A stretch of DNA of 64,000 nucleotides from Escherichia coli (GTDB lineage: Bacteria > Pseudomonadota > Gammaproteobacteria > Enterobacterales > Enterobacteriaceae): NCBI RefSeq assembly GCF_044647545.1, contig NZ_CP172818.1, one strand, 5' to 3'. Under the pieces are notes generated by a model that worked only from the letters and a program-made list of their open reading frames with translations, was not told the origin of the DNA and made no database searches. A program made the position numbers and the translations under genes. This document shows positions 11,454 through 56,861 of this stretch, one piece after another (the first letter of the stretch is position 1; every line of letters starts with the position of its first letter).

Positions 11454-12104
11454 TTGGCGATTCGTCTTCATAAACTGGCTGTTGCTTTAGGCGTCTTTAT
11501 TGTTAGCGCTCCTGCCTTTTCGCATGGTCATCACTCACACGGCAAACCCTTAACAGAGGTCGAACAAAAAGCTGCTAATGGTGTTTTTGATGATACCAAT
11601 GTACAAAACCGAACGCTCAGTGACTGGGATGGAGTCTGGCAATCCGTTTATCCTTTACTGCAAAGTGGCAAACTTGACCCCGTCTTTCAGAAGAAAGCGG
11701 ATGCAGATAAAACCAAAACATTTGCTGAAATTAAAGATTATTATCGCAAAGGTTATGTGACAGATATCGAGATGATTGGCATTGAGGACGGCATTGTTGA
11801 ATTCCATAGACATAATGAAACAACATCCTGTAAATATGATTACGATGGATACAAAATACTCACCTATAAATCAGGCAAGAAAGGCGTTCGTTACTTATTC
11901 GAATGTAAAGATCCTGAAAGCAAAGCCCCTAAATATATTCAATTTAGCGATCATATAATTGCACCACGAAAATCATCTCATTTTCACATTTTTATGGGTA
12001 ATGATACCCAACAGTCTTTATTGAATGAAATGGAAAACTGGCCAACGTATTATCCATATCAGTTGAGTAGCAAAGAAGTGGTCGAGGAGATGATGTCTCA
12101 TTGA
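11454..12104 (+). CDS. zinT: Periplasmic zinc/cadmium-binding protein
   Basis: 216-aa ORF with signal peptide and His-rich HGHHSHG motif. Confidence 0.85.
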
Positions 12105-12191
12105 TTTTTTGCGCTGACTTCAATTATTTAACAGAACAGTGCCTGGTAGTAACGACAATAATTTACCAAGACAAATAAATAAGACAAACTC

Positions 12192-12225
12192 AGACACGCT
12201 CATGCTTGAGACGTGTCTTTTTTAT
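12192..12225 (+). terminator. Rho-independent terminator after zinT
   Basis: AGACACG...CGTGTCT hairpin followed by TTTTTTATT. Confidence 0.6.
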
Positions 12226-32989: not shown

Positions 32990-33733
32990 TTATAGCAGTG
33001 CCAGCAGGAAGACCAGTTCACCAAGCTCTATGGCTGCTCCCAGCGTATCGCCGGTTTGCCCGCCCAGCGTACGTTTGAGAAGCTGACCGAGGATGAAAAT
33101 CGCCACCATCGTCACCACCATAGCAGCCACACCATGCATACCCGGCAATAATACGGCAGCAAAAATAGCGGCTAAGCCGAGTGTGACGCAGGTTTGTCGC
33201 CCATCAATTTTGCCAATGAACACATTGCCAAGCCCTTCTTCCCGGGCATAACGATGACGATACATCAATAATGCGGCAGTCCCGCGGCTGATCGCACATG
33301 CTGCCGCCAGCGATGCAAGGATCGGTTCGCCACGCAGAGCCAACTCGCTTAACACCAAAATCTTTGCCAGTACAACAAAAATCAATGCCAGACCGCCGTG
33401 GGTACCTAAACGGCTATCACGCATGATTTCCAACATGCGATCGCGGCTACGTGCAGAAAATACGCCATCACAGGTATCAGCGAGGCCGTCCAGATGGAAT
33501 CCCCCGGTCATCAGCACCAGCACAAGTACGCTAAACAGTGCCGCCAGTGGTGCGCCACACCATGCCTGCAGCACCATGAAGACCAGCCCGCTAATCGCGC
33601 CAAGCAATAATCCAATCAAAGGAAAAGTAATAATACCGCGAGAATAATGCTCGAAATCCAGTCCCTGGGACCAGCGACGCGGTACAGGCAGACGCGTAAT
33701 AAATGAGAGCATCGCCCAAAATAATTTACTCAT
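32990..33733 (-). CDS. cobS: Cobalamin 5'-phosphate synthase
   Basis: Polytopic ORF, internal start [16 protein letters not shown]... Confidence 0.85.
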
Positions 33734-34275
33734 TTGATTTTTACTCCAATACCCGAAACCACCAGCCATACTTCATTTGCCGCAGCGGCCAACTGCTGAT
33801 TTACCCGCCCGGCAATATCACGAAAATGTCGTGCCAGACGACTCTCCGGCACAATCCCCATTCCCACTTCGTTAGTCACTAATACAACCTTTGCGGGGCA
33901 ACGTTGGCAGGCAGCAATCAACGACTGAATCTCAGCATTAATCGCCTGTTCCATCGCCTGATAATCCCATTCATCAGGGTCTTTATCGCCGCCATAATCA
34001 AACAACAGATTAGTCACCATTGTGGTAACGCATTCAAGCAACACAACCTCATTCGGGTTAATGTCTGCATGAATTAATTCATCAAGATGTTGCCAGCGCT
34101 CCACTGTGCGCCAGTGCTCCGGGCGGCCTTGCCGATGATGTTCTATCCGTGCAGCCATCTCATCATCAAGGATTTGCGAGGTAGCGATATACAGAACCTG
34201 TGAAGAGTCCCCAATAAGCGCCTCTGCGTGGCGACTCTTCCCGCTCCGTGCGCCCCCCGTCACCAAAATCATCAT
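33730..34275 (-). CDS. cobU: Adenosylcobinamide kinase / adenosylcobinamide-phosphate guanylyltransferase
   Basis: 181-aa ORF with P-loop GGARSGKS. Confidence 0.85.
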
Positions 34276-35691
34276 ACCGACTCCTGATTCAAATGTATGA
34301 TGGTATTCATTGAACAGAACAATGGATCCCCCACCGTTGCTGACCGCAAAACATTTACGCGATTAATACTGCGCGTAATATAATTAAAAATCCAGCATTC
34401 TCAATCCATTACGAAATAAGATGGCATTACGGAATAGCCAGACTTTCTCGTGTTAACGTCCGACAAAATGCGTCATTGACAGCGGTTTCTGTGGATTGAC
34501 ACATTTCATTCAGATAATGAATTAATGCTACTGCCGGAACAACCAGCAAACGGGCATTGTGTTCTGAAATCCAGGCTATTGATTCAACGTCAGCGACAGA
34601 TCTGCGCTGTAAAAGAACTTGTAAAACAACGTAATAGAATTATCCGGAATGGTGGCCTAGAACACCACAATTTCGCTCTCTCGGTAAGGCACTGTCACAG
34701 CATTCAACAGAATGTGACTTGCCAGATTTATTAGCGCCACCAGATGTTTAACCGGGTAACCACGACCCAGTCGGGGATATATTCCATCTTCTCGCTGACA
34801 TCATCAAGAATAAAAAGGTTTATCACACTCAGAGCAACGTTCTTCAGCAGGCGGGATAATTCTTCAACATTTAGAAGATGTGTTATTAAAGGCATACAAA
34901 CTGGACGTATTGTATTTTCTTTTGGTGGTTGACCTAAGGTAGCAGTTTATCCTGATGCGCTGAGATTTCTGTAATATCTACGTCAACATTCTCCTCGAAT
35001 AGAAAATGCAGCCCCGGCAAGTGATTCACATTTTTTAACAAAACGTTGTTAGCGTGCCATTTTCAGAAGCTCTCCAAGAAAGCGAATTCTTTTCTCAAAT
35101 TCTGCATTCTCAGACACAGCTTTCTACTCCATGGTAATGGCCCAAATACGAAGTTGCTCAGGATCATTAGTGGTGCTGAGAAGTTAAATAACCATGCGGA
35201 GTACCACTCGTCATCACGTATTTATATATCATGAAGCTATTGTTGTGTTTTGTACATCAGTAGATATATTCTGATATACTCCTTTTGCTAGACATAACCT
35301 TTCACCTGCTTGCAAAGCTTCTGTGTTCTGACATTGCCAAATTGTTGCAATTCTGTATCCAGCCTTCTTTCAGTCATAGCTTCGGGCCGCGATAAGACTC
35401 ACTGATCTGACCCTGATTCCTCTTGCAGACTTTATAGACCAATTAAAATGCAGTTTCTGCAGGTCAACGTCTGACCATCATTGTCATCACTCTGGCCATT
35501 AGAGTAACCTTCTGCATTCATCCTTTTGTAAAAAGTTTATATTAGTATCAGCAATTAACCGGACCTGATACTGATATGAGTCTTACCGCATATACGGTCA
35601 ATTTCAGCAATTAATTACATTATCCACGCCAAAGTATTTGTCATCACAATGATGGTACCTTCTTTCAGACACCATTTTTTCAACTCCGTTT

Positions 35692-35732
35692 TCCACGGAC
35701 CGCACTCTTATGTCAAGAGTGCGGTCCGTGGA
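35692..35732. repeat. Perfect 18-bp inverted repeat with 5-nt spacer
   Basis: TCCACGGACCGCACTCTT-atgtc-AAGAGTGCGGTCCGTGGA; no T-run after it. Confidence 0.9.
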
Positions 35733-35883
35733 TACAACCAGAGACCGACTGACACGAGTCAGAGGAAACGACGGATATGTTCAGTCGTAAAATATCTATC
35801 AAAAAACATGATTAAGGTCAAAAATGTTTGATATTTACAATTTATGAAGATGACAATAATTATAGATATATGAGAACATAAAT

Positions 35884-35904
35884 GAAAATAATTATCATTA
35901 CAGC
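35884..35904 (+). promoter_or_regulatory. Fur-box-like sequence upstream of TonB-dependent receptor gene
   Basis: GAAAATAATTATCATTACAGC resembles Fur consensus GATAATGATAATCATTATC. Confidence 0.35.
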
Positions 35905-36254
35905 AATCATTTGTACTTTGTATTAATGAGGGATGAAATGTTATATAATATACCTTGTCGAATTTATATCCTTTCCACTCTGTCATTATGCATTTCTGGG
36001 ATAGTTTCTACTGCAACCGCAACTTCTTCAGAAACAAAAATCAGCAACGAAGAGACGCTCGTCGTGACCACGAATCGTTCGGCAAGCAACCTTTGGGAAA
36101 GCCCGGCGACTATACAGGTTATTGACCAACAAACATTGCAGAACTCCACCAATGCCTCCATAGCCGATAATTTGCAGGACATCCCCGGAGTAGAGATAAC
36201 AGACAACTCCTTGGCAGGCCGTAAACAAATCCGCATTCGTGGCTGGATTTGCCC

Positions 36255-37160
36255 CTATATTTCCAGACATCTGTTATCACTTAACCCATTACAAGCCCGC
36301 TGCCGCAGATATTCCCGTGGCGAGCGATAACCCAGCGCACTATGCGGATGCCATTCGTTATAATGCTCGAACGCCTCTGCAAGGTTCTTTGCTGCCGTTA
36401 ACCCGTCTGGTTTGGGCATGATACTGATGTAGTCACGCTTTATCGTTTTCACGAAGCTCTCTGCTATTCCGTTACTCTCCGGACTCCGCACCGCCGTGTT
36501 CTTCGGTTCAAGTCCCAACATCCGGGCGAACTGGCGTGTTTCATTAGCCCGGTAGCATGAACCATTATCCGTCAGCCACTCCACTGGAGACGACGGAAGA
36601 TCGTTGCCGAAGCGGCGTTCCACCGCTCCCAGCATGACGTCCTGTACTGTTTCACTGTTGAAGCCGCCGGTAGTGACCGCCCAGTGCAGTGCCTCACGAT
36701 CACAGCAGTCCAGCGCGAACGTGACACGCAGTCTCTCTCCGTTATCACAGCAGAACTCGAACCCGTCAGAGCACCATCGCTGATTGCTTTCTTTCACGGC
36801 CACTCTGCCTGTATGTGCCCGTTTCGATGGCGGTACAGCAGGTTTTCGCTCAAGCAACAGCGCATTCTGGCGCATGATCCGGTAAACACGTTTGGCATTG
36901 ATCGCAGGCATACCATCAAGTTCTGCCTGTCTGCGAAGCAGCGCCCATACCCGACGATAACCATACGTTGGCAGCTCTCCGATAACATGGTGTATACGGA
37001 GAAGCACATCCGTATCATCAGTGTGACGACTGCGGCGGCCATCCATCCAGTCATCGGTTCGTCTGAGAATGACGTGCAACTGCGCACGCGACACCCGGAG
37101 ACAACGGCTGACTAAGCTTACTCCCCATCCCCGGGCAATAAGGGCGCGTGCGCTATCCAC
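36255..37160 (-). CDS. insD: IS2 transposase OrfB (DDE integrase domain)
   Basis: 301-aa [33 protein letters not shown]... matches InsD. Confidence 0.9.
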
Positions 37161-37482
37161 TTTTTTGCCCGTCCATATTCAACGGCTTCTTTGAGGAGTT
37201 CATTTTCCATCGTTTTCTTGCCGAGCAGGCGCTGGAGTTCTTTAATCTGCTTCATGGCAGCAGCAAGTTCAGAGGCAGGAACGACCTGTTCTCCGCGGCG
37301 ACAGCAGTAAGACTTCCCCCCTGGATTGCTTGCGCCAGAGAAATAACTGGCTGGCTGCTACACCGTGTTGCCGGGCAACAAGGGAGGCCGTCATTCCCGG
37401 TTCAAAGCTCTGCTGAACAATAGCGCTCTTTTCCTGTGTAGTACGCCGTCTGCGTTTCTCCGGTCCCTAAGACATCAATCAT
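37118..37482 (-). pseudogene. insC: IS2 OrfA (InsC), out of frame in this copy
   Basis: ATG...TAA span is 365 nt (not a multiple of 3); MIDVLG then frame lost; later frames still encode [12 protein letters not shown]...LFLWRKQ and ...[45 protein letters not shown]. Confidence 0.65.
37160..37167 (-). promoter_or_regulatory. IS2 programmed -1 frameshift slippery site (A6G)
   Basis: Minus strand CAAAAAAG at the insC/insD overlap. Confidence 0.6.
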
Positions 37483-37804
37483 CTGTTCTCCAATGACTAA
37501 GTCAAAAACTAGAATATTAAGACTATCACTTATTTAAGTGATATTGGTTGTCTGGAGATTCTGGGGGCTAGTCTAGTGGCGAAGCATCCTCCCGTGTTTT
37601 AATTCTCATTGATGGTCAGGAGGTAACTTATCAGCGCGCCGGAGATAATTATGGTGTGGGACTGTTGATAGATGAGTCTGCGCTGGAGCGTGTTGAGATA
37701 GTGAAAGGTCCATATTCCGTACTGTACGGTTCACAGGCAATTGGCGGTATTGTTAACTTCATCACCAAAAAGGGTGAATCTCCAGACTCCCTATATCACT
37801 TAAA

Positions 37805-38515
37805 TTGATACAACTTTTTAGAGTAGTCATTAGTGAACAGATAATTGATAACTCAGAACCAGTAAAATGCAAAAGACGCACCACGCTGGGAAAATCGCTG
37901 CTATTCAGCAGAGTTTTGTATCGAGAATGGTGGCCAGCCACTTATTGCTCTCGCGTAAGCGGGTACCGTGACATTCTGCCCGAACTGGACCTGGTACTGT
38001 GGCTGATTAAAGCCGATGACCGTGCCCTGTCTGTGGATGAGTATTTCTGGCGACACATCCTGCACCGGGGACATCAGCGGGTACTGTTTGTGGTGATGCA
38101 GGCCGATAAAACGGAGCCCTGCCATGAATGGGATATGGCCGGTATTCAGCCTTCTCCCGCACAGGCACAGAACATTCGCGAAAAAACGGAGGCGGTATTC
38201 CGTCTGTTCCGGCCCGTACATCGGGTTGTTGCCGTATCGGCCCGCACCGGCTGGGAACTGGATACGCTGGTCAGTGCGCTCATGACAGCACTTCCCGACC
38301 ATGCCGCCAGTCCCCTGATGACCCGCCTGCAGGACGAGCTGCGCACGGAATCTGTCCGCGCTCAGGCCCGTGAACAGTTTACCGGTGCGGTGGACCGGAT
38401 ATTTGACACGGCGGAGAGCGCCTGTATTGCCTCTGTTGCACGCACGGTTCTGCGTGCCGTCCGTGACTCGGTGGTCTCTGTTGCCCGCGCGGTATGGAAC
38501 TGGATTTTCTTCTGA
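37805..38515 (+). pseudogene. yeeP: Prophage GTPase-like protein, N-terminally truncated (no P-loop)
   Basis: 236-aa ORF matches the C-terminal part of YeeP-type GTP-binding proteins; no GxxxxGK[ST] motif present. Confidence 0.55.
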
Positions 38516-38609
38516 ACCGGTGGTGACTGATGCCCTCCCTGACTCTGAGTCTGCTCACAAAAGCACTGTTTTCGTTACTGTCTCTCTTGTCCGTGCAATA
38601 GCTCAATAA

Positions 38610-38818
38610 TAGAATAAAACGATCAATATCTATTTTATCGATCGTTTATATCGATCGATAAGCTAATAATAACCTTTGTCAGTAACATGCACAGATACGT
38701 ACAGAAAGACATTCAGGGAACAACAGAACCACAATTCAGAAACTCCCACAGCCGGACCTCCGGCACTGTAACCCTTTACCTGCCGGTATCCACGTTTGTG
38801 GGTACCGGCTTTTTTATT
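38610..38818 (+). ncRNA. isrC: Small RNA IsrC region (5' leader upstream of flu); boundaries approximate
   Basis: Position between yeeP and flu; ends at intrinsic terminator CCGGTATCCAC-gttt-GTGGGTACCGG plus T6 (38780..38818). Confidence 0.4.
38621..38656 (+). promoter_or_regulatory. Three GATC sites (Dam/OxyR phase-variation switch of Ag43)
   Basis: GATC at 38621, 38640 and 38653 within aacGATCaatatctattttatcGATCgtttatatcGATCgataag, about 200 bp upstream of flu. Confidence 0.75.
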
Positions 38819-38842
38819 CACCCTCAATCTAAGGAAAAGCTG

Positions 38843-41800
38843 ATGAAACGACATCTGAATACCTGCTACAGGCTGGTATGGAATCACATGACGGGCGCTT
38901 TCGTGGTTGCCTCCGAACTGGCCCGCGCACGGGGTAAACGTGGCGGTGTGGCGGTTGCACTGTCTCTTGCCGCAGTCACGTCACTCCCGGTGCTGGCTGC
39001 TGACATCGTTGTGCACCCGGGAGAAACCGTGAACGGCGGAACACTGGCAAATCATGACAACCAGATTGTCTTCGGTACGACCAACGGAATGACCATCAGT
39101 ACCGGGCTGGAGTATGGGCCGGATAACGAGGCCAATACCGGCGGGCAATGGGTACAGGATGGCGGAACAGCCAACAAAACGACTGTCACCAGTGGTGGTC
39201 TTCAGAGAGTGAACCCCGGTGGAAGTGTCTCAGACACGGTTATCAGTGCCGGAGGCGGACAGAGCCTTCAGGGACGGGCTGTGAACACCACGCTGAATGG
39301 TGGCGAACAGTGGATGCATGAGGGGGCGATAGCCACAGGAACCGTCATTAATGATAAGGGCTGGCAGGTCGTCAAGCCCGGTACAGTGGCAACGGATACC
39401 GTTGTTAATACCGGGGCGGAAGGGGGACCGGATGCAGAAAACGGTGATACCGGGCAGTTTGTTCGCGGGGATGCCGTACGCACAACCATCAATAAAAACG
39501 GTCGCCAGATTGTGAGAGCTGAAGGAACGGCAAATACCACTGTGGTTTATGCCGGCGGCGACCAGACTGTACATGGTCACGCACTGGATACCACGCTGAA
39601 TGGGGGATACCAGTATGTGCACAACGGCGGTACAGCGTCTGACACTGTTGTGAACAGTGACGGCTGGCAGATTGTCAAAAACGGGGGTGTGGCCGGGAAT
39701 ACCACCGTTAATCAGAAGGGCAGACTGCAGGTGGACGCCGGTGGTACAGCCACGAATGTCACCCTGAAGCAGGGCGGCGCACTGGTTACCAGTACGGCTG
39801 CAACCGTTACCGGCATAAACCGCCTGGGAGCATTCTCTGTTGTGGAGGGTAAAGCTGATAATGTCGTACTGGAAAATGGCGGACGCCTGGATGTGCTGAC
39901 CGGACACACAGCCACTAATACCCGCGTGGATGATGGCGGAACGCTGGATGTCCGCAACGGTGGCACCGCCACCACCGTATCCATGGGAAATGGCGGTGTA
40001 CTGCTGGCCGATTCCGGTGCCGCTGTCAGTGGTACCCGGAGCGACGGAAAGGCATTCAGTATCGGAGGCGGTCAGGCGGATGCCCTGATGCTGGAAAAAG
40101 GCAGTTCATTCACGCTGAACGCCGGTGATACGGCCACGGATACCACGGTAAATGGCGGACTGTTCACCGCCAGGGGCGGCACACTGGCGGGCACCACCAC
40201 GCTGAATAACGGCGCCATACTTACCCTTTCCGGGAAGACGGTGAACAACGATACCCTGACCATCCGTGAAGGCGATGCACTCCTGCAGGGAGGCTCTCTC
40301 ACCGGTAACGGCAGCGTGGAAAAATCAGGAAGTGGCACACTCACTGTCAGCAACACCACACTCACCCAGAAAGCCGTCAACCTGAATGAAGGCACGCTGA
40401 CGCTGAACGACAGTACCGTCACCACGGATGTCATTGCTCAGCGCGGTACAGCCCTGAAGCTGACCGGCAGCACTGTGCTGAACGGTGCCATTGACCCCAC
40501 GAATGTCACTCTCGCCTCCGGTGCCACCTGGAATATCCCCGATAACGCCACGGTGCAGTCGGTGGTGGATGACCTCAGCCATGCCGGACAGATTCATTTC
40601 ACCTCCACCCGCACAGGGAAGTTCGTACCGGCAACCCTGAAAGTGAAAAACCTGAACGGACAGAATGGCACCATCAGCCTGCGTGTACGCCCGGATATGG
40701 CACAGAACAATGCTGACAGACTGGTCATTGACGGCGGCAGGGCAACCGGAAAAACCATCCTGAACCTGGTGAACGCCGGCAACAGTGCGTCGGGGCTGGC
40801 GACCAGCGGTAAGGGTATTCAGGTGGTGGAAGCCATTAACGGTGCCACCACGGAGGAAGGGGCCTTTGTCCAGGGGAACAGGCTGCAGGCCGGTGCCTTT
40901 AACTACTCCCTCAACCGGGACAGTGATGAGAGCTGGTATCTGCGCAGTGAAAATGCTTATCGTGCAGAAGTCCCCCTGTATGCCTCCATGCTGACACAGG
41001 CAATGGACTATGACCGGATTGTGGCAGGCTCCCGCAGCCATCAGACCGGTGTAAATGGTGAAAACAACAGCGTCCGTCTCAGCATTCAGGGCGGTCATCT
41101 CGGTCACGATAACAATGGCGGTATTGCCCGTGGGGCCACGCCGGAAAGCAGCGGCAGCTATGGATTCGTCCGTCTGGAGGGTGACCTGATGAGAACAGAG
41201 GTTGCCGGTATGTCTGTGACCGCGGGGGTATATGGTGCTGCTGGCCATTCTTCCGTTGATGTTAAGGATGATGACGGCTCCCGTGCCGGCACGGTCCGGG
41301 ATGATGCCGGCAGCCTGGGCGGATACCTGAATCTGGTACACACGTCCTCCGGCCTGTGGGCTGACATTGTGGCACAGGGAACCCGCCACAGCATGAAAGC
41401 GTCATCGGACAATAACGACTTCCGCGCCCGGGGCTGGGGCTGGCTGGGCTCACTGGAAACCGGTCTGCCCTTCAGTATCACTGACAACCTGATGCTGGAG
41501 CCACAACTGCAGTATACCTGGCAGGGACTTTCCCTGGATGACGGTAAGGACAACGCCGGTTATGTGAAGTTCGGGCATGGCAGTGCACAACATGTGCGTG
41601 CCGGTTTCCGTCTGGGCAGCCACAACGATATGACCTTTGGCGAAGGCACCTCATCCCGTGCCCCCCTGCGTGACAGTGCAAAACACAGTGTGAGTGAATT
41701 ACCGGTGAACTGGTGGGTACAGCCTTCTGTTATCCGCACCTTCAGCTCCCGGGGAGATATGCGTGTGGGGACTTCCACTGCAGGCAGCGGGATGACGTTC

Positions 41801-41962
41801 TCTCCCTCACAGAATGGCACATCACTGGACCTGCAGGCCGGACTGGAAGCCCGTGTCCGGGAAAATATCACCCTGGGCGTTCAGGCCGGTTATGCCCACA
41901 GCGTCAGCGGCAGCAGCGCTGAAGGGTATAACGGTCAGGCCACACTGAATGTGACCTTCTGA
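38843..41962 (+). CDS. flu: Antigen 43 self-associating autotransporter adhesin
   Basis: 1039-aa ORF from MKRHLNTCYRLVWNHMTGAFVVASELARARG (extended signal peptide), beta-helical passenger repeats, C-terminal beta-barrel ending ...QATLNVTF. Confidence 0.9.
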   Translation: MKRHLNTCYRLVWNHMTGAFVVASELARARGKRGGVAVALSLAAVTSLPVLAADIVVHPGETVNGGTLANHDNQIVFGTTNGMTISTGLEYGPDNEANTGGQWVQDGGTANKTTVTSGGLQRVNPGGSVSDTVISAGGGQSLQGRAVNTTLNGGEQWMHEGAIATGTVINDKGWQVVKPGTVATDTVVNTGAEGGPDAENGDTGQFVRGDAVRTTINKNGRQIVRAEGTANTTVVYAGGDQTVHGHALDTTLNGGYQYVHNGGTASDTVVNSDGWQIVKNGGVAGNTTVNQKGRLQVDAGGTATNVTLKQGGALVTSTAATVTGINRLGAFSVVEGKADNVVLENGGRLDVLTGHTATNTRVDDGGTLDVRNGGTATTVSMGNGGVLLADSGAAVSGTRSDGKAFSIGGGQADALMLEKGSSFTLNAGDTATDTTVNGGLFTARGGTLAGTTTLNNGAILTLSGKTVNNDTLTIREGDALLQGGSLTGNGSVEKSGSGTLTVSNTTLTQKAVNLNEGTLTLNDSTVTTDVIAQRGTALKLTGSTVLNGAIDPTNVTLASGATWNIPDNATVQSVVDDLSHAGQIHFTSTRTGKFVPATLKVKNLNGQNGTISLRVRPDMAQNNADRLVIDGGRATGKTILNLVNAGNSASGLATSGKGIQVVEAINGATTEEGAFVQGNRLQAGAFNYSLNRDSDESWYLRSENAYRAEVPLYASMLTQAMDYDRIVAGSRSHQTGVNGENNSVRLSIQGGHLGHDNNGGIARGATPESSGSYGFVRLEGDLMRTEVAGMSVTAGVYGAAGHSSVDVKDDDGSRAGTVRDDAGSLGGYLNLVHTSSGLWADIVAQGTRHSMKASSDNNDFRARGWGWLGSLETGLPFSITDNLMLEPQLQYTWQGLSLDDGKDNAGYVKFGHGSAQHVRAGFRLGSHNDMTFGEGTSSRAPLRDSAKHSVSELPVNWWVQPSVIRTFSSRGDMRVGTSTAGSGMTFSPSQNGTSLDLQAGLEARVRENITLGVQAGYAHSVSGSSAEGYNGQATLNVTF

Positions 41963-42076
41963 CAGAACCATCGCCTCTCTGTGGTCCCGGTCATCATGAC
42001 CGGGACCCGGACCGGCGCAACGGATCTTCAACGCCACATTCGCTGGCATTAACAATAACATGATATTCATCACGGA

Positions 42077-43615
42077 GTGACTATGTTACAGATAGTCGGC
42101 GCGCTGATCCTGCTGATCGCAGGATTTGCCATTCTTCGCCTTTTGTTCAGAGCATTAATCAGCACGGCTTCTGCGCTGGCAGGGCTCATATTGCTGTGTC
42201 TGTTCGGCCCGGCCTTACTGGCTGGCTATATCACCGAACGCATAACCCGGTTGTTCCATATTCGCTGGCTGGCAGGCGTATTTCTGACGATTGCCGGAAT
42301 GATCATCAGCTTCATGTGGGGACTTGATGGTAAACATATCGCGCTGGAGGCTCACACCTTTGACTCTGTGAAATTTATTCTGACCACCGCTCTCGCCGGT
42401 GGTCTGCTGGCTGTTCCCCTGCAGATCAAAAACATTCAGCAGAACGGGATCACACCAGAAGATATCAGCAAGGAAATTAACGGGTATTACTGCTGTTTTT
42501 ATACTGCCTTTTTCCTTATGGCGTGTTCTGCATGCGCACCATTGATCGCGTTACAGTACGATATTTCACCGTCACTGATGTGGTGGGGCGGGTTGTTGTA
42601 CTGGCTGGCTGCATTAGTGACGCTGCTATGGGCGGCCAGCCAGATCCAGGCGCTGAAAAAACTGACCTGTGCCATCAGCCAGACACTGGAAGAACAACCG
42701 GTGCTCAACAGTAAATCGTGGCTGACCAGTTTGCAAAACGATTACAGCCTTCCTGACTCACTGACGGAGCGCATCTGGCTGACGCTCATTTCTCAACGGA
42801 TTTCCCGGGGAGAGCTGAGGGAATTTGAACTGGCAGACGGAAACTGGTTACTGAACAATGCCTGGTATGAAAGAAACATGGCAGGGTTTAACGAACAGTT
42901 GAAAGAGAACCTGTCATTCACACCTGATGAACTGAAAACGCTCTTCCGGAACCGCCTGAATTTATCACCGGAAGCGAATGACGATTTTCTCGATCGTTGC
43001 CTGGACGGCGGTGACTGGTATCCCTTTTCAGAAGGTCGCCGTTTTGTATCATTCCATCACGTGGATGAGCTTCGTATCTGTGCCTCCTGCGGGCTGACAG
43101 AAGTACATCATGCCCCGGAAAATCATAAGCCGGATCCGGAATGGTACTGCTCCTCTCTTTGTCGCGAAACAGAAACACTGTGTCAGGAAATTTATGAACG
43201 CCCTTACAACAGCTTTATTTCCGATGCAACGGCGAATGGTCTGATTCTCATGAAACTGCCGGAAACCTGGAGTACAAATGAGAAAATGTTTGCTTCCGGA
43301 GGGCAGGGACATGGGTTTGCCGCTGAACGGGGAAACCATATTGTCGACAGAGTCCGTCTGAAAAACGCACGGATCCTCGGTGATAATAATGCCAGAAATG
43401 GAGCAGACAGACTGGTCAGCGGAACAGAAATCCAGACGAAATATTGTTCAACTGCAGCCCGTAGCGTCGGTGCGGCATTCGACGGACAAAACGGACAGTA
43501 TCGTTACATGGGAAATAATGGCCCCATGCAACTGGAAGTCCCCCGTGATCAGTATGCCGGCGCTGTTGAAACCATGAGGAATAAGATCCGCGAAGGTAAA
43601 GTAGAGGAGCGATGA
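42077..43615 (+). CDS. yeeR: Prophage inner-membrane protein of unknown function with Cys-rich C-terminal region
   Basis: 512-aa ORF; N-terminal TM helices; CASCG...CSSLC motif. Confidence 0.75.
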   Translation: MTMLQIVGALILLIAGFAILRLLFRALISTASALAGLILLCLFGPALLAGYITERITRLFHIRWLAGVFLTIAGMIISFMWGLDGKHIALEAHTFDSVKFILTTALAGGLLAVPLQIKNIQQNGITPEDISKEINGYYCCFYTAFFLMACSACAPLIALQYDISPSLMWWGGLLYWLAALVTLLWAASQIQALKKLTCAISQTLEEQPVLNSKSWLTSLQNDYSLPDSLTERIWLTLISQRISRGELREFELADGNWLLNNAWYERNMAGFNEQLKENLSFTPDELKTLFRNRLNLSPEANDDFLDRCLDGGDWYPFSEGRRFVSFHHVDELRICASCGLTEVHHAPENHKPDPEWYCSSLCRETETLCQEIYERPYNSFISDATANGLILMKLPETWSTNEKMFASGGQGHGFAAERGNHIVDRVRLKNARILGDNNARNGADRLVSGTEIQTKYCSTAARSVGAAFDGQNGQYRYMGNNGPMQLEVPRDQYAGAVETMRNKIREGKVEER

Positions 43616-44416: not shown

Positions 44417-44785
44417 GTGTCAGACACACTCTCCGGGACAACACATCCCGACGACAATCACGACCACCCCTGGTGGGGACTACCCTGCACCGTGACGCCC
44501 TGTTTCGGCGCCCGTCTGGTGCAGGAGGGTAACCGCTTGCATTACCTTGCCGACCGCGCCGGTAACAGAGGCCTGTTCAGCGATGCAGATGCGTACCCCC
44601 TGGACCAGGCCTTTCCGCTGCTGATGAAACAACTGGAACTCATGCTCACCAGCGGTGAACTGAATCCCCGCCATCAGCATACCGTCACACTGTATGCGAA
44701 GGGGCTGACCTGTGAAGCTGACACCCTCGGCAGCTGTGGTTACGTTTATCTGGCTGTTTATCCGACGCCCGAAACGAAAAATTAA
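44417..44785 (+). CDS. cbeA: Type IV antitoxin (cytoskeleton bundling-enhancing factor)
   Basis: GTG start; VSDTLSGTTHPDDNHDHPWWGLPCTVTPCFGARLVQEGNRLHYLADRAG... matches CbeA/YeeU. Confidence 0.8.
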   Translation: MSDTLSGTTHPDDNHDHPWWGLPCTVTPCFGARLVQEGNRLHYLADRAGNRGLFSDADAYPLDQAFPLLMKQLELMLTSGELNPRHQHTVTLYAKGLTCEADTLGSCGYVYLAVYPTPETKN

Positions 44786-44873: not shown

Positions 44874-45246
44874 ATGAAAACATTACCCGTATTACCCGGG
44901 CAGGCGGCGTTCTCGCCCGTCTCCTGTTACCATCTGGCAGATACTGCTCACCCGATTACTGGACCAGCACTACAGCCTTACGCTGAATGACACACCGTTC
45001 GCCGATGAACGCGTGATTGAGCAGCATATTGAGGCAGGCATTTCACTGTGTGATGCAGTGAACTTTCTCGTGGAAAAATACGTACTGGTACAACTGACCA
45101 GCCGGGATTCAGCGCCGGAACCCGTCTCAGTTAATCAACAGCATTGATATCCTCCGGGCTCGCCGGGCAACCGGTCTGATGACCCGCAGCAACTACAGAA
45201 CGGTAAATAACATTACCCTGGGTAAGTATCCGGAGGCGAAAAATGA
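44874..45246 (+). pseudogene. cbtA: Type IV toxin CbtA (YeeV), frameshifted at least twice
   Basis: [12 protein letters not shown] then frame lost; second frame [54 protein letters not shown]; third frame DILRARRATGLMTR.NYRTVNNITLGKYPEAK runs into yeeW. Confidence 0.7.
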
Positions 45247-50070: not shown

Positions 50071-51498
50071 ATGATGAATGACGGTAAGCAACAACCTACC
50101 TTTTTCTTTCACGATTACGAAACCTTTGGAACGCACCCCGCGTTAGATCGCCCTGCACAGTTCGCAGCCATTCGCACTGATAACGAATTCAATGTCATCG
50201 GCGAACCCGAAGTCTTTTACTGCAAGCCCGCGGATGACTATTTACCCCAGCCTGGAGCAGTATTAATTACCGGTATTACCCCGCAGGAAGCACGGGCGAA
50301 AGGAGAAAACGAAGCCGCGTTTGCCGCCCGTATTCACTCGCTTTTTACCGTACCGAAGACCTGTATTCTGGGCTACAACAATGTGCGTTTCGACGATGAA
50401 GTCACACGCAACGTTTTTTATCGTAATTTCTACGATCCTTACGCCTGGAGCTGGCAGCATGATAACTCGCGCTGGGATTTACTGGATGTTATGCGTGCCT
50501 GTTATGCCCTGCGCCCGGAAGGAATAAACTGGCCTGAAAATGATGACGGTCTACCGAGCTTTCGCCTTGAGCATTTAACCAAAGCGAATGGTATTGAACA
50601 TAGCAACGCCCACGATGCGATGGCTGATGTGTACGCCACTATTGCGATGGCGAAACTGGTAAAAACGCGTCAGCCACGCCTGTTTGATTATCTCTTTACC
50701 CATCGTAATAAACACAAACTGATGGCGTTGATTGATGTTCCGCAGATGAAACCCCTGGTTCACGTTTCCGGAATGTTTGGGGCATGGCGTGGCAATACCA
50801 GCTGGGTGGCACCGCTGGCGTGGCATCCTGAAAATCGCAATGCCGTAATTATGGTGGATTTGGCAGGAGACATTTCACCATTACTGGAGCTGGATAGCGA
50901 CACATTGCGCGAGCGTTTATATACCGCAAAAGCCGATCTTGGCGATAACGCCGCCGTTCCGGTTAAGCTGGTGCATATCAATAAATGTCCGGTACTGGCC
51001 CAGGCGAATACGCTACGCCCGGAAGACGCTGAGCGTTTAGGGATTGCTCGTCAACACTGCCTGGATAACCTGAAAGTGTTGCGCGAAAACCCGCAAGTAC
51101 GCGACAAAGTTGTGGCAATTTTTGCAGAAGCTGAACCGTTTACACCATCAGATAATGTAGATGCACAGCTTTATAATGGCTTTTTTAGCGACGCCGATCG
51201 TGCAGCAATGAAAATCGTGCTGGAGACTGAACCGCGTAATTTACCGGCTCTGGATATCACCTTTGTTGATAAGCGTATCGAGAAACTCCTGTTCAACTAC
51301 CGCGCCCGCAACTTCCCCGGCACGTTAGATGACAACGAGCAGCAACGCTGGCTTGAGCACCGCCGCCAGGTCTTCACACCCGAGTTTTTACAAGGCTATG
51401 CAGAAGAGATTCAGATGCTGGCGCAGCTGTATGCCGACGATAAAGAAAAAGTGGCGCTGTTAAAAGCGCTTTGGCAGTACGCGGAAGAGATTGTCTAA
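50071..51498 (+). CDS. sbcB: Exodeoxyribonuclease I
   Basis: Internal start MMNDGKQQPTFFFHDYETFG... (DEDDh exonuclease); track ORF extended 16 aa upstream. Confidence 0.85.
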   Translation: MMNDGKQQPTFFFHDYETFGTHPALDRPAQFAAIRTDNEFNVIGEPEVFYCKPADDYLPQPGAVLITGITPQEARAKGENEAAFAARIHSLFTVPKTCILGYNNVRFDDEVTRNVFYRNFYDPYAWSWQHDNSRWDLLDVMRACYALRPEGINWPENDDGLPSFRLEHLTKANGIEHSNAHDAMADVYATIAMAKLVKTRQPRLFDYLFTHRNKHKLMALIDVPQMKPLVHVSGMFGAWRGNTSWVAPLAWHPENRNAVIMVDLAGDISPLLELDSDTLRERLYTAKADLGDNAAVPVKLVHINKCPVLAQANTLRPEDAERLGIARQHCLDNLKVLRENPQVRDKVVAIFAEAEPFTPSDNVDAQLYNGFFSDADRAAMKIVLETEPRNLPALDITFVDKRIEKLLFNYRARNFPGTLDDNEQQRWLEHRRQVFTPEFLQGYAEEIQMLAQLYADDKEKVALLKALWQYAEEIV

Positions 51499-56443: not shown

Positions 56444-56582
56444 CCGTTATCTCCTGATACACCTAAGATCTATAAGGCTACGCTAGCGTATCAAAACTGA
56501 CAATTCATTCTATGAATGAGACGTTCATACCACACAAGAAAATTATGAGAGAAAGATCAATATTGAACTTTACCAACATTTG

Positions 56583-56618
56583 TAGACCAGATAAGGCATT
56601 CACGCCGCATCCGGCAGG
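56583..56618. repeat. REP element
   Basis: Reverse complement CCTGCCGGATGCGGCGTGAATGCCTTATCTGGTCTA matches REP consensus. Confidence 0.6.
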
Positions 56619-56861
56619 AACCAAAGCCCACTTTAGTTACAGAACACAATGTTCTTGAGGGTTTTAAAGACATATTTTCACGATTTCTTTTCTAACGTAG
56701 TCAAAACCACCTAACGCCAGTCACTCCAGGCCCCCTCCTTTCCCCGCTCATTCATTAAACAAATCCATTGCCATAAAATATATAAAAAAGCCCTTGCTTT
56801 CTAACGTGAAAGTGGTTTAGGTTAAAAGACATCAGTTGAATAAACATTCACAGAGACTTTT

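Follow-up and report, generated by a model that had tools for sequence, protein, structure and literature searches.

The stretch of Escherichia coli DNA considered here (64,000 nucleotides of contig NZ_CP172818.1, referred to below as the window) carries a copy of the insertion sequence IS2 whose insC gene cannot be read as one open frame. Is this copy a genuine, defective element, or does the break lie in the assembled sequence instead of the chromosome? A sequence-only reading had left the choice between a non-autonomous copy and a mis-polished multicopy IS. These two have proved to be the main explanations, and the evidence set out below shifts the weight toward mis-polishing.

An IS2 copy in yoeA inherited with the CP4-44 block

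The element spans 1332 bp on the minus strand (36244-37575), against 1331 bp for the canonical IS2 of K-12. The sequence-only reading had proposed an alignment to canonical IS2 as a check; when run, it gave 98.4% identity across all 1332 bp, which rules out a chance resemblance, and placed the differences exclusively at the left end. On either side lies the sequence GTGGC (36239-36243 and 37576-37580), a perfect 5-bp target-site duplication that K-12 carries at the same site; the length of the element and its duplication are thus as that reading had described them. The two ends of IS2 are a 41-bp right inverted repeat, IRR, which acts as the donor end, and a 42-bp left inverted repeat, IRL (PMC3299598). 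IRR (36244-36284, minus) is identical to that of K-12, and IRL (37534-37575, minus) bears two changes, G7A (37569) and T14A (37562), both of which are seen in natural IS2 copies. Inverted-repeat arms were detected at 36252-36284 and 37534-37566, the imperfect terminal repeats expected for IS2.

The regulatory and catalytic parts are also in place. OrfA binds IS positions 39-48 and thereby represses the promoter P_IRL (PMC3299598); this operator and the extended -10 promoter itself (TGATAGTCT, IS positions 48-56) are unchanged here (37520-37537, minus). OrfAB is made by -1 slippage at the A6G site (PMC3299598), and this slippery sequence, CAAAAAAG, is present and intact at 37160-37167 (minus), as is the overlap of orfA and orfB. 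The insD gene (orfB; 36255-37160, minus) is open over 301 codons, its DNA identical to K-12 insD, and its product matches the Pfam families HTH_21, rve (E = 1e-18) and rve_3, consistent with a DDE integrase-like core. The sequence-only reading was right about both the intact insD and the slippery site. Nucleotide identity, inverted repeats, the 5-bp duplication and a DDE OrfB all identify the element, which is IS2 (IS3 family, IS2 group) by descent and by every structural criterion save an intact orfA, here split over three frames. The copy shares with the IS3-family machinery of IS2 and IS911 the 41/42-bp inverted repeats, P_IRL, the orfA/orfB overlap with A6G, the DDE (rve) core and the 5-bp duplication, but differs in that its H+HTH DNA-binding domain is untranslatable as written. 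Taken at face value, the sequence would not describe an autonomous element.

The interrupted gene is yoeA. By transfer of the K-12 annotation, a 5' fragment encoding the signal peptide and the start of the Plug domain lies at 35938-36243 (plus), and the remainder beyond the IS (37576-37808, plus) encodes the rest of the Plug domain and is then truncated, without a beta-barrel, as in K-12. When the IS and one GTGGC repeat were excised in silico and the two parts rejoined, the product matched the Plug family PF07715 (E = 5e-25). The frame stops at 37808, and the C-terminal 22-strand beta-barrel is missing. The Plug domain bears out the proposal that the target is a TonB-dependent receptor gene, now a pseudogene; in K-12, too, the annotation lists the yoeA fragments as incomplete pseudogenes.

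Searching 5,426 complete E. coli genomes, we traced the locus to the CP4-44 prophage of K-12 strains, whose yoeA carries an IS2 that matches ours in exact insertion point, orientation and duplication. The K-12 copy (MG1655 and derivatives) further shares with ours IRR, insD, A6G and the 3' third of insC, together with the neighbours cobU, the yeeP-like pseudogene, agn43/flu and yeeR. The yoeA fragments are identical apart from two SNPs, both in the right flank of the IS, and over the roughly 10 kb around the insertion the only departures from K-12 are a few SNPs and one short stretch of diverged sequence within the yeeP-like pseudogene. Because site, orientation and duplication coincide and the cobU-yeeR block, with yoeA::IS2 and agn43 inside it, is nearly base-for-base that of K-12, the insertion is the K-12 event, inherited with the CP4-44 block, and not a new transposition. 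The K-12 copy differs in being 1331 bp long and in having an intact 121-aa InsC and an annotated programmed frameshift, and it lies in a chromosome with an IS5 beside cobU. We also considered that an IS2 which was already chimeric or defective had transposed, independently and recently, into this hot spot in yoeA. Such a coincidence would fit the differing left end, and the preferred target regions of IS2 (PMC3299598) count in its favour. Nevertheless we consider it very improbable, given the shared site, orientation and duplication, the 100% identity of the right 1015 bp and the nearly K-12 surroundings; moreover, without OrfAB of its own the copy could have moved only by mobilisation in trans.

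The chromosome around this block is that of a different lineage. The window is about 98% identical to K-12 overall, collinear with it, and contains a single IS within its 64 kb. Host core genes are 1-3% diverged from K-12 (about 2% overall), almost entirely at third codon positions or synonymous sites, and the closest complete genome reaches only about 97.5-98% over the neighbouring 20 kb. We rejected the idea that the window is K-12 itself in view of the overall identity of about 98%, the absence of IS5 and the differing yoeB-yefM and yodB regions. A Shigella origin, by which absence from the E. coli genome collection could be explained, was judged unlikely, since the window holds a single IS in 64 kb, is fully collinear with K-12 and has an SbcB allele labelled E. 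coli. That yoeA::IS2 and the nearly K-12-identical CP4-44 block around it occur in a chromosome about 2% diverged shows that lineages share the block, IS included. The insertion is therefore nothing new in kind: it is the well-known IS2 insertion in yoeA of the K-12 CP4-44 prophage, here with the left end of another isoform. A literature search on IS2 and yoeA returned nothing relevant to sequence variants.

Three further observations concern this setting. The IS5 that adjoins cobU in K-12 is missing at about 34656, where the junction is clean. CP4-44 itself is a mosaic relative to K-12, with identical blocks at 33405-37258 and 38523-43609 and blocks diverged by 4-9% at 37981-38522 (the yeeP-like GTPase pseudogene) and from 43610 on; the alternation suggests recombination among paralogous CP4-type elements. 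The clinical isolate BHUCD01 (NZ_CM183442.1) has exactly the K-12 architecture and coordinates with a canonical IS2, and in the yeeP-like tract it is 98.1% identical to the window, against 96.9% for K-12; the BHUCD01 pattern might stem from a K-12-guided consensus.

A split insC within a variant left end

The nominal insC (orfA; 37118-37482, minus) runs from an ATG at 37480-37482 to a TAA at 37118-37120. This ATG-to-TAA span of 365 nt, against 366 in K-12, cannot be translated as one open reading frame. InsC instead appears as four pieces in three frames: MIDVLG in frame 0, GPEK...WRKQ in frame 1, a third piece of 10 protein letters again in frame 0, and GEQVV...GDGE followed by the stop in frame 2. 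The longest of these lie in a 41-aa ORF (37269-37394) and a 45-aa ORF (37118-37255) that covers M77-E121, the leucine-zipper-like part. In the domain map given for IS2, the DNA-binding H+HTH occupies residues 13-58, the leucine-zipper-like segment about 73-100 and the catalytic core 236-398 (Lewis et al., PMC3219604). The 365-nt span and the scatter over three frames had been noticed from the letters alone, as had the consequence that neither OrfA nor OrfAB could be made as encoded. We recovered all of this, and a shift at codon 6/7 that cuts the ATG off from the binding domain accounts for the last point.

Six indels, all of them private to this copy, separate it from natural IS2 on the minus strand. 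The first three lie in the 5' leader: an additional TT at 37513-37514, directly downstream of P_IRL, and the change of TTTTTAGACTAGTC to TTTTTGACTTAGTC at 37500-37503, which combines the loss of an A with the gain of a T. The remaining three lie in the coding region, at the sites TTAGGGACCGG, GCAATCCAGG and GCCGCGGAG. The fourth indel, an insertion of one base at codon 6/7 (TTAGGGACCGG, 37460-37470; the natural alleles are GGG-CC or GGA-CC), shifts the ATG away from the reading frame of the entire H+HTH domain. The fifth is the loss of an A at IS position 249 in codon 53 (37320-37329), directly 5' of a CCAGG site, and the sixth the loss of one base at IS position 280 in codon 63 (37291-37299), where the natural alleles are C or A.

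A programmed -1 frameshift at A6G is already part of normal IS2 expression, and we asked if InsC might still be made through extra programmed shifts at the three coding indels. This would demand one +1 and two -1 shifts at sites unlike A6G, the GPEK segment is directly preceded by an in-frame TAG, the leader indels are non-coding, and the arrangement occurs in no other IS2 copy examined. We regard such recoding as hardly credible.

The indels do not lie in otherwise K-12-like sequence. All 23 alignment columns that differ from K-12 IS2 fall within a single variant tract (37259-37569, minus; IS positions 7-316), which comprises 15 substituted positions and the six indel events, and over its other approximately 1015 bp the IS does not differ from K-12. 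The switch from variant to K-12-type sequence takes place between IS positions 316 and 358. All 15 substituted bases are known natural states of a second IS2 isoform, found as full-length copies in gut-metagenome E. coli contigs (L022-L027) and on plasmids (pSTEC299_1), as an in-frame left-end remnant of about 355 bp in chromosomes of the FDAARGOS_497 type, and in partial mosaics. This isoform supplies 13 of the 15 substituted bases, with A7 and A14 of IRL occurring only in the remnant and in pSTEC299_1. Its InsC, which differs from that of K-12 by I19S, V32A and E55G, is the InsC of the window once the indels are removed. The copies of the second isoform read in frame and lack all six indels; they carry G at positions 214 and 274, whereas the window has the K-12 base at each of these two sites, isolated within otherwise variant sequence. 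The full-length copies also show 21-41 further differences from K-12 IS2 downstream, where the window is purely K-12-type. As assembled, the copy in the window is a chimera whose left 310 bp or so (IRL, leader and the first two-thirds of insC) are of the isoform type and whose remainder is of the K-12 type. Either recombination between IS2 copies or a mixing of reads could have produced it.

The left-end remnant of about 355 bp lies, in FDAARGOS_497 and Z0117EC0051, at a conserved site flanked by an RND-efflux pseudogene and by small HTH genes, and it is the top-scoring match in many human and animal isolates.

Origin of the six indels

What distinguishes the copy from everything sampled is the indels alone. 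Removing all six in silico restores a 121-codon insC, the protein of which matches HTH_Tnp_1 (Pfam) and is present verbatim in natural full-length IS2 copies. The window copy consists of a natural allele, six private indels and zero private substitutions. In E. coli, spontaneous substitutions outnumber small indels by about 10 to 1 in mutation-accumulation studies. Given that ratio, the probability that six indels arise before any substitution is about 6e-7, and the probability that six uniformly placed indels all land within 310 of 1332 bp is 1.6e-4. Two of the indels, moreover, sit exactly at sites at which the isoforms differ (G/A at position 109 and C/A at position 280).

Nor did searches recover the indel-bearing left end. 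It was not found in the 5,426 complete E. coli genomes, with their 21,714 IS2 left ends (best full-coverage match 97.4%), nor in 72,556 plasmids, 4,670 of which carry the segment (best full-coverage match 96.6%). Searches for short strings spanning the indels were likewise negative: the leader indels were absent from species-representative genomes and metagenome contigs, the codon-6/7 indel from species-representative genomes and viral contigs, the position-249 indel from metagenome contigs and the position-280 indel from viral contigs. Three ORFs specific to the variant were absent, as exact proteins, from a collection of 15 billion proteins.

These findings lead us to favour the view that the six indels in the insC region are consensus errors of assembly or polishing, to which we assign a probability of about 60%. 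The argument rests on the form of the sequence: unique indels without any novel substitution, confined to the isoform tract, in a window that is clean elsewhere. We envision that reads from non-identical IS2 copies would clash in the polymorphic left end and so yield indels and a patchwork of states, while over the approximately 1 kb that matches canonical IS2 pooled reads would still yield a correct consensus. A consensus drawn from mixed reads is expected to give indels at isoform-differing sites and isolated K-12 bases, as observed. The cause of the indels acted only where the copy differs from canonical IS2. A generic sequencing error was rejected, since indels are absent from 47 of the 49 other genes compared with K-12 and most of the divergence is synonymous. 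If the indels are indeed consensus errors, the true copy would encode an intact 121-aa InsC variant and, via the -1 frameshift at A6G, normal OrfAB, and the element would be an ordinary, potentially autonomous IS2.

The main alternative takes the sequence to be correct and the copy to be a real, defective, non-autonomous IS2, the left 310 bp or so having been replaced by recombination or gene conversion from a diverged, decayed IS2 fragment. This is a possibility that we take seriously but hold to be doubtful. In its favour, solo left-end remnants stand at fixed chromosomal sites in other lineages, and at about 355 bp they match the length of the tract; yet the known remnant carries no indels, and six indels without a novel substitution are very unlikely for a decayed donor. 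A long-decayed IS2 relic was on these grounds, zero private substitutions and an indel-free remnant, judged an unlikely donor. The recombination that this scenario calls for would be in keeping with CP4-44 in this strain, a mosaic at 37981-38522 and from 43610, and with natural IS2 left ends, which are themselves mosaic, some other full-length copies being partial mosaics of the isoforms. However, only 6 bp separate the tract from the IS terminus, so that conversion would find almost no outer homology. The assembly is clean elsewhere, which favours a real copy, but the indel-bearing left end occurs in no collection searched. The host lineage is poorly sampled, and an unsampled decayed donor is accordingly conceivable.

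Frameshifted insC genes are frequent in nature, and they offer both a precedent for a real defective copy and a contrast with it. O157:H7 EDL933 has insC split into ORFs of 53 aa and 45 aa, and several genomes have it split into 75 or 76 aa and 45 aa. Like the window, these copies are broken upstream of M77, leave the same 45-aa orphan ORF (MKQIK...GDGE) and retain an intact 301-aa insD; the orphan ORF is called on 532 contigs, EDL933 included. Unlike the window, each natural dead copy carries a single lesion, a 4-bp slip deletion, a 1-bp deletion or a CAG-to-TAG nonsense change, none of which is common to the window with its six indels. Selection for inactivation would not explain the leader indels (+TT, -A and +T) either, because they are non-coding. 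If the sequence is nonetheless real, the copy would make no OrfA repressor and no OrfAB transposase, and at most InsD and a 45-aa leucine-zipper-like fragment without the H+HTH domain (residues 13-58). Mobilisation in trans by OrfAB from other IS2 copies would then be conceivable, both ends, the parts of Pjunc, the operator, the promoter and A6G being intact.

A third way to account for the clustering is that the indels are real and were made together with the recombination that installed the foreign left end, as the footprint of error-prone, frameshift-biased repair synthesis at an IS end targeted by transposase. Such a process would explain an indel-only cluster confined to a conversion tract that starts at IRL. 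We think it quite unlikely.

Several observations weigh against consensus error, the reading we prefer. The assembly is otherwise accurate, also in other repeats, with all four copies of tRNA-Asn intact. The indels do not resemble the simple homopolymer errors that a single sequencing platform typically makes. Natural insC genes are often broken, and cbtA in the same window is also frameshifted.

The biological weight of the copy itself is small, since yoeA::IS2 belongs to the textbook picture of K-12 and dead or chimeric IS copies are commonplace. Its interest is rather as an example for the quality control of annotation: when indels are restricted to the segment that varies among the copies of a multicopy element and no novel substitution accompanies them, they speak for consensus error and not for pseudogenisation, and labelling such a copy non-autonomous from the assembly alone is unsafe.

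Other differences from K-12 in the window

Two other genes in the window carry frameshifts. In cbl (29317-29337, minus), a clean 7-bp tandem duplication, GTCAGGC GTCAGGC, lies near codon 30, and the resulting frameshift would make this LysR-type regulator a pseudogene in the strain. Three indels (-2, -1 and -1) scatter the CbtA toxin gene cbtA (44874-45241) over three frames, and cbeA (44417-44785), the antitoxin gene of this CP4-44 toxin-antitoxin pair, stays open. The best match to the cbtA-yeeW allele in the 5,426 complete E. coli genomes is 92.9% identical, so that it is diverged by substitution too; natural decay is enough to explain the cbtA frameshifts, given so diverged an allele.

The remaining differences concern gene content and sequence. 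The 3' third of sbcB (about 50970-51470) differs from K-12 at 13-21 positions per 100 bp without indels, whereas the remainder of the gene shows 0-5 per 100 bp. From this pattern the last 500 bp or so of sbcB resemble a segment brought in by recombination; the resulting SbcB protein, WP_400165262.1, is known from a single contig. The yoeB-yefM toxin-antitoxin module of K-12 is missing; where K-12 has about 660 bp, the window has about 210 bp of unrelated sequence (56519-56730). Between zinT and tRNA-Ser/mtfA, the roughly 1 kb of the K-12 yodB region is replaced by about 180 bp at 12104-12284, and yodB has no match in the window. Finally, the inverse-autotransporter gene yeeJ is 93% identical to K-12 inside 18936-20566, with gaps and a short unaligned piece, an internal difference that is likely to be repeat-domain variation.
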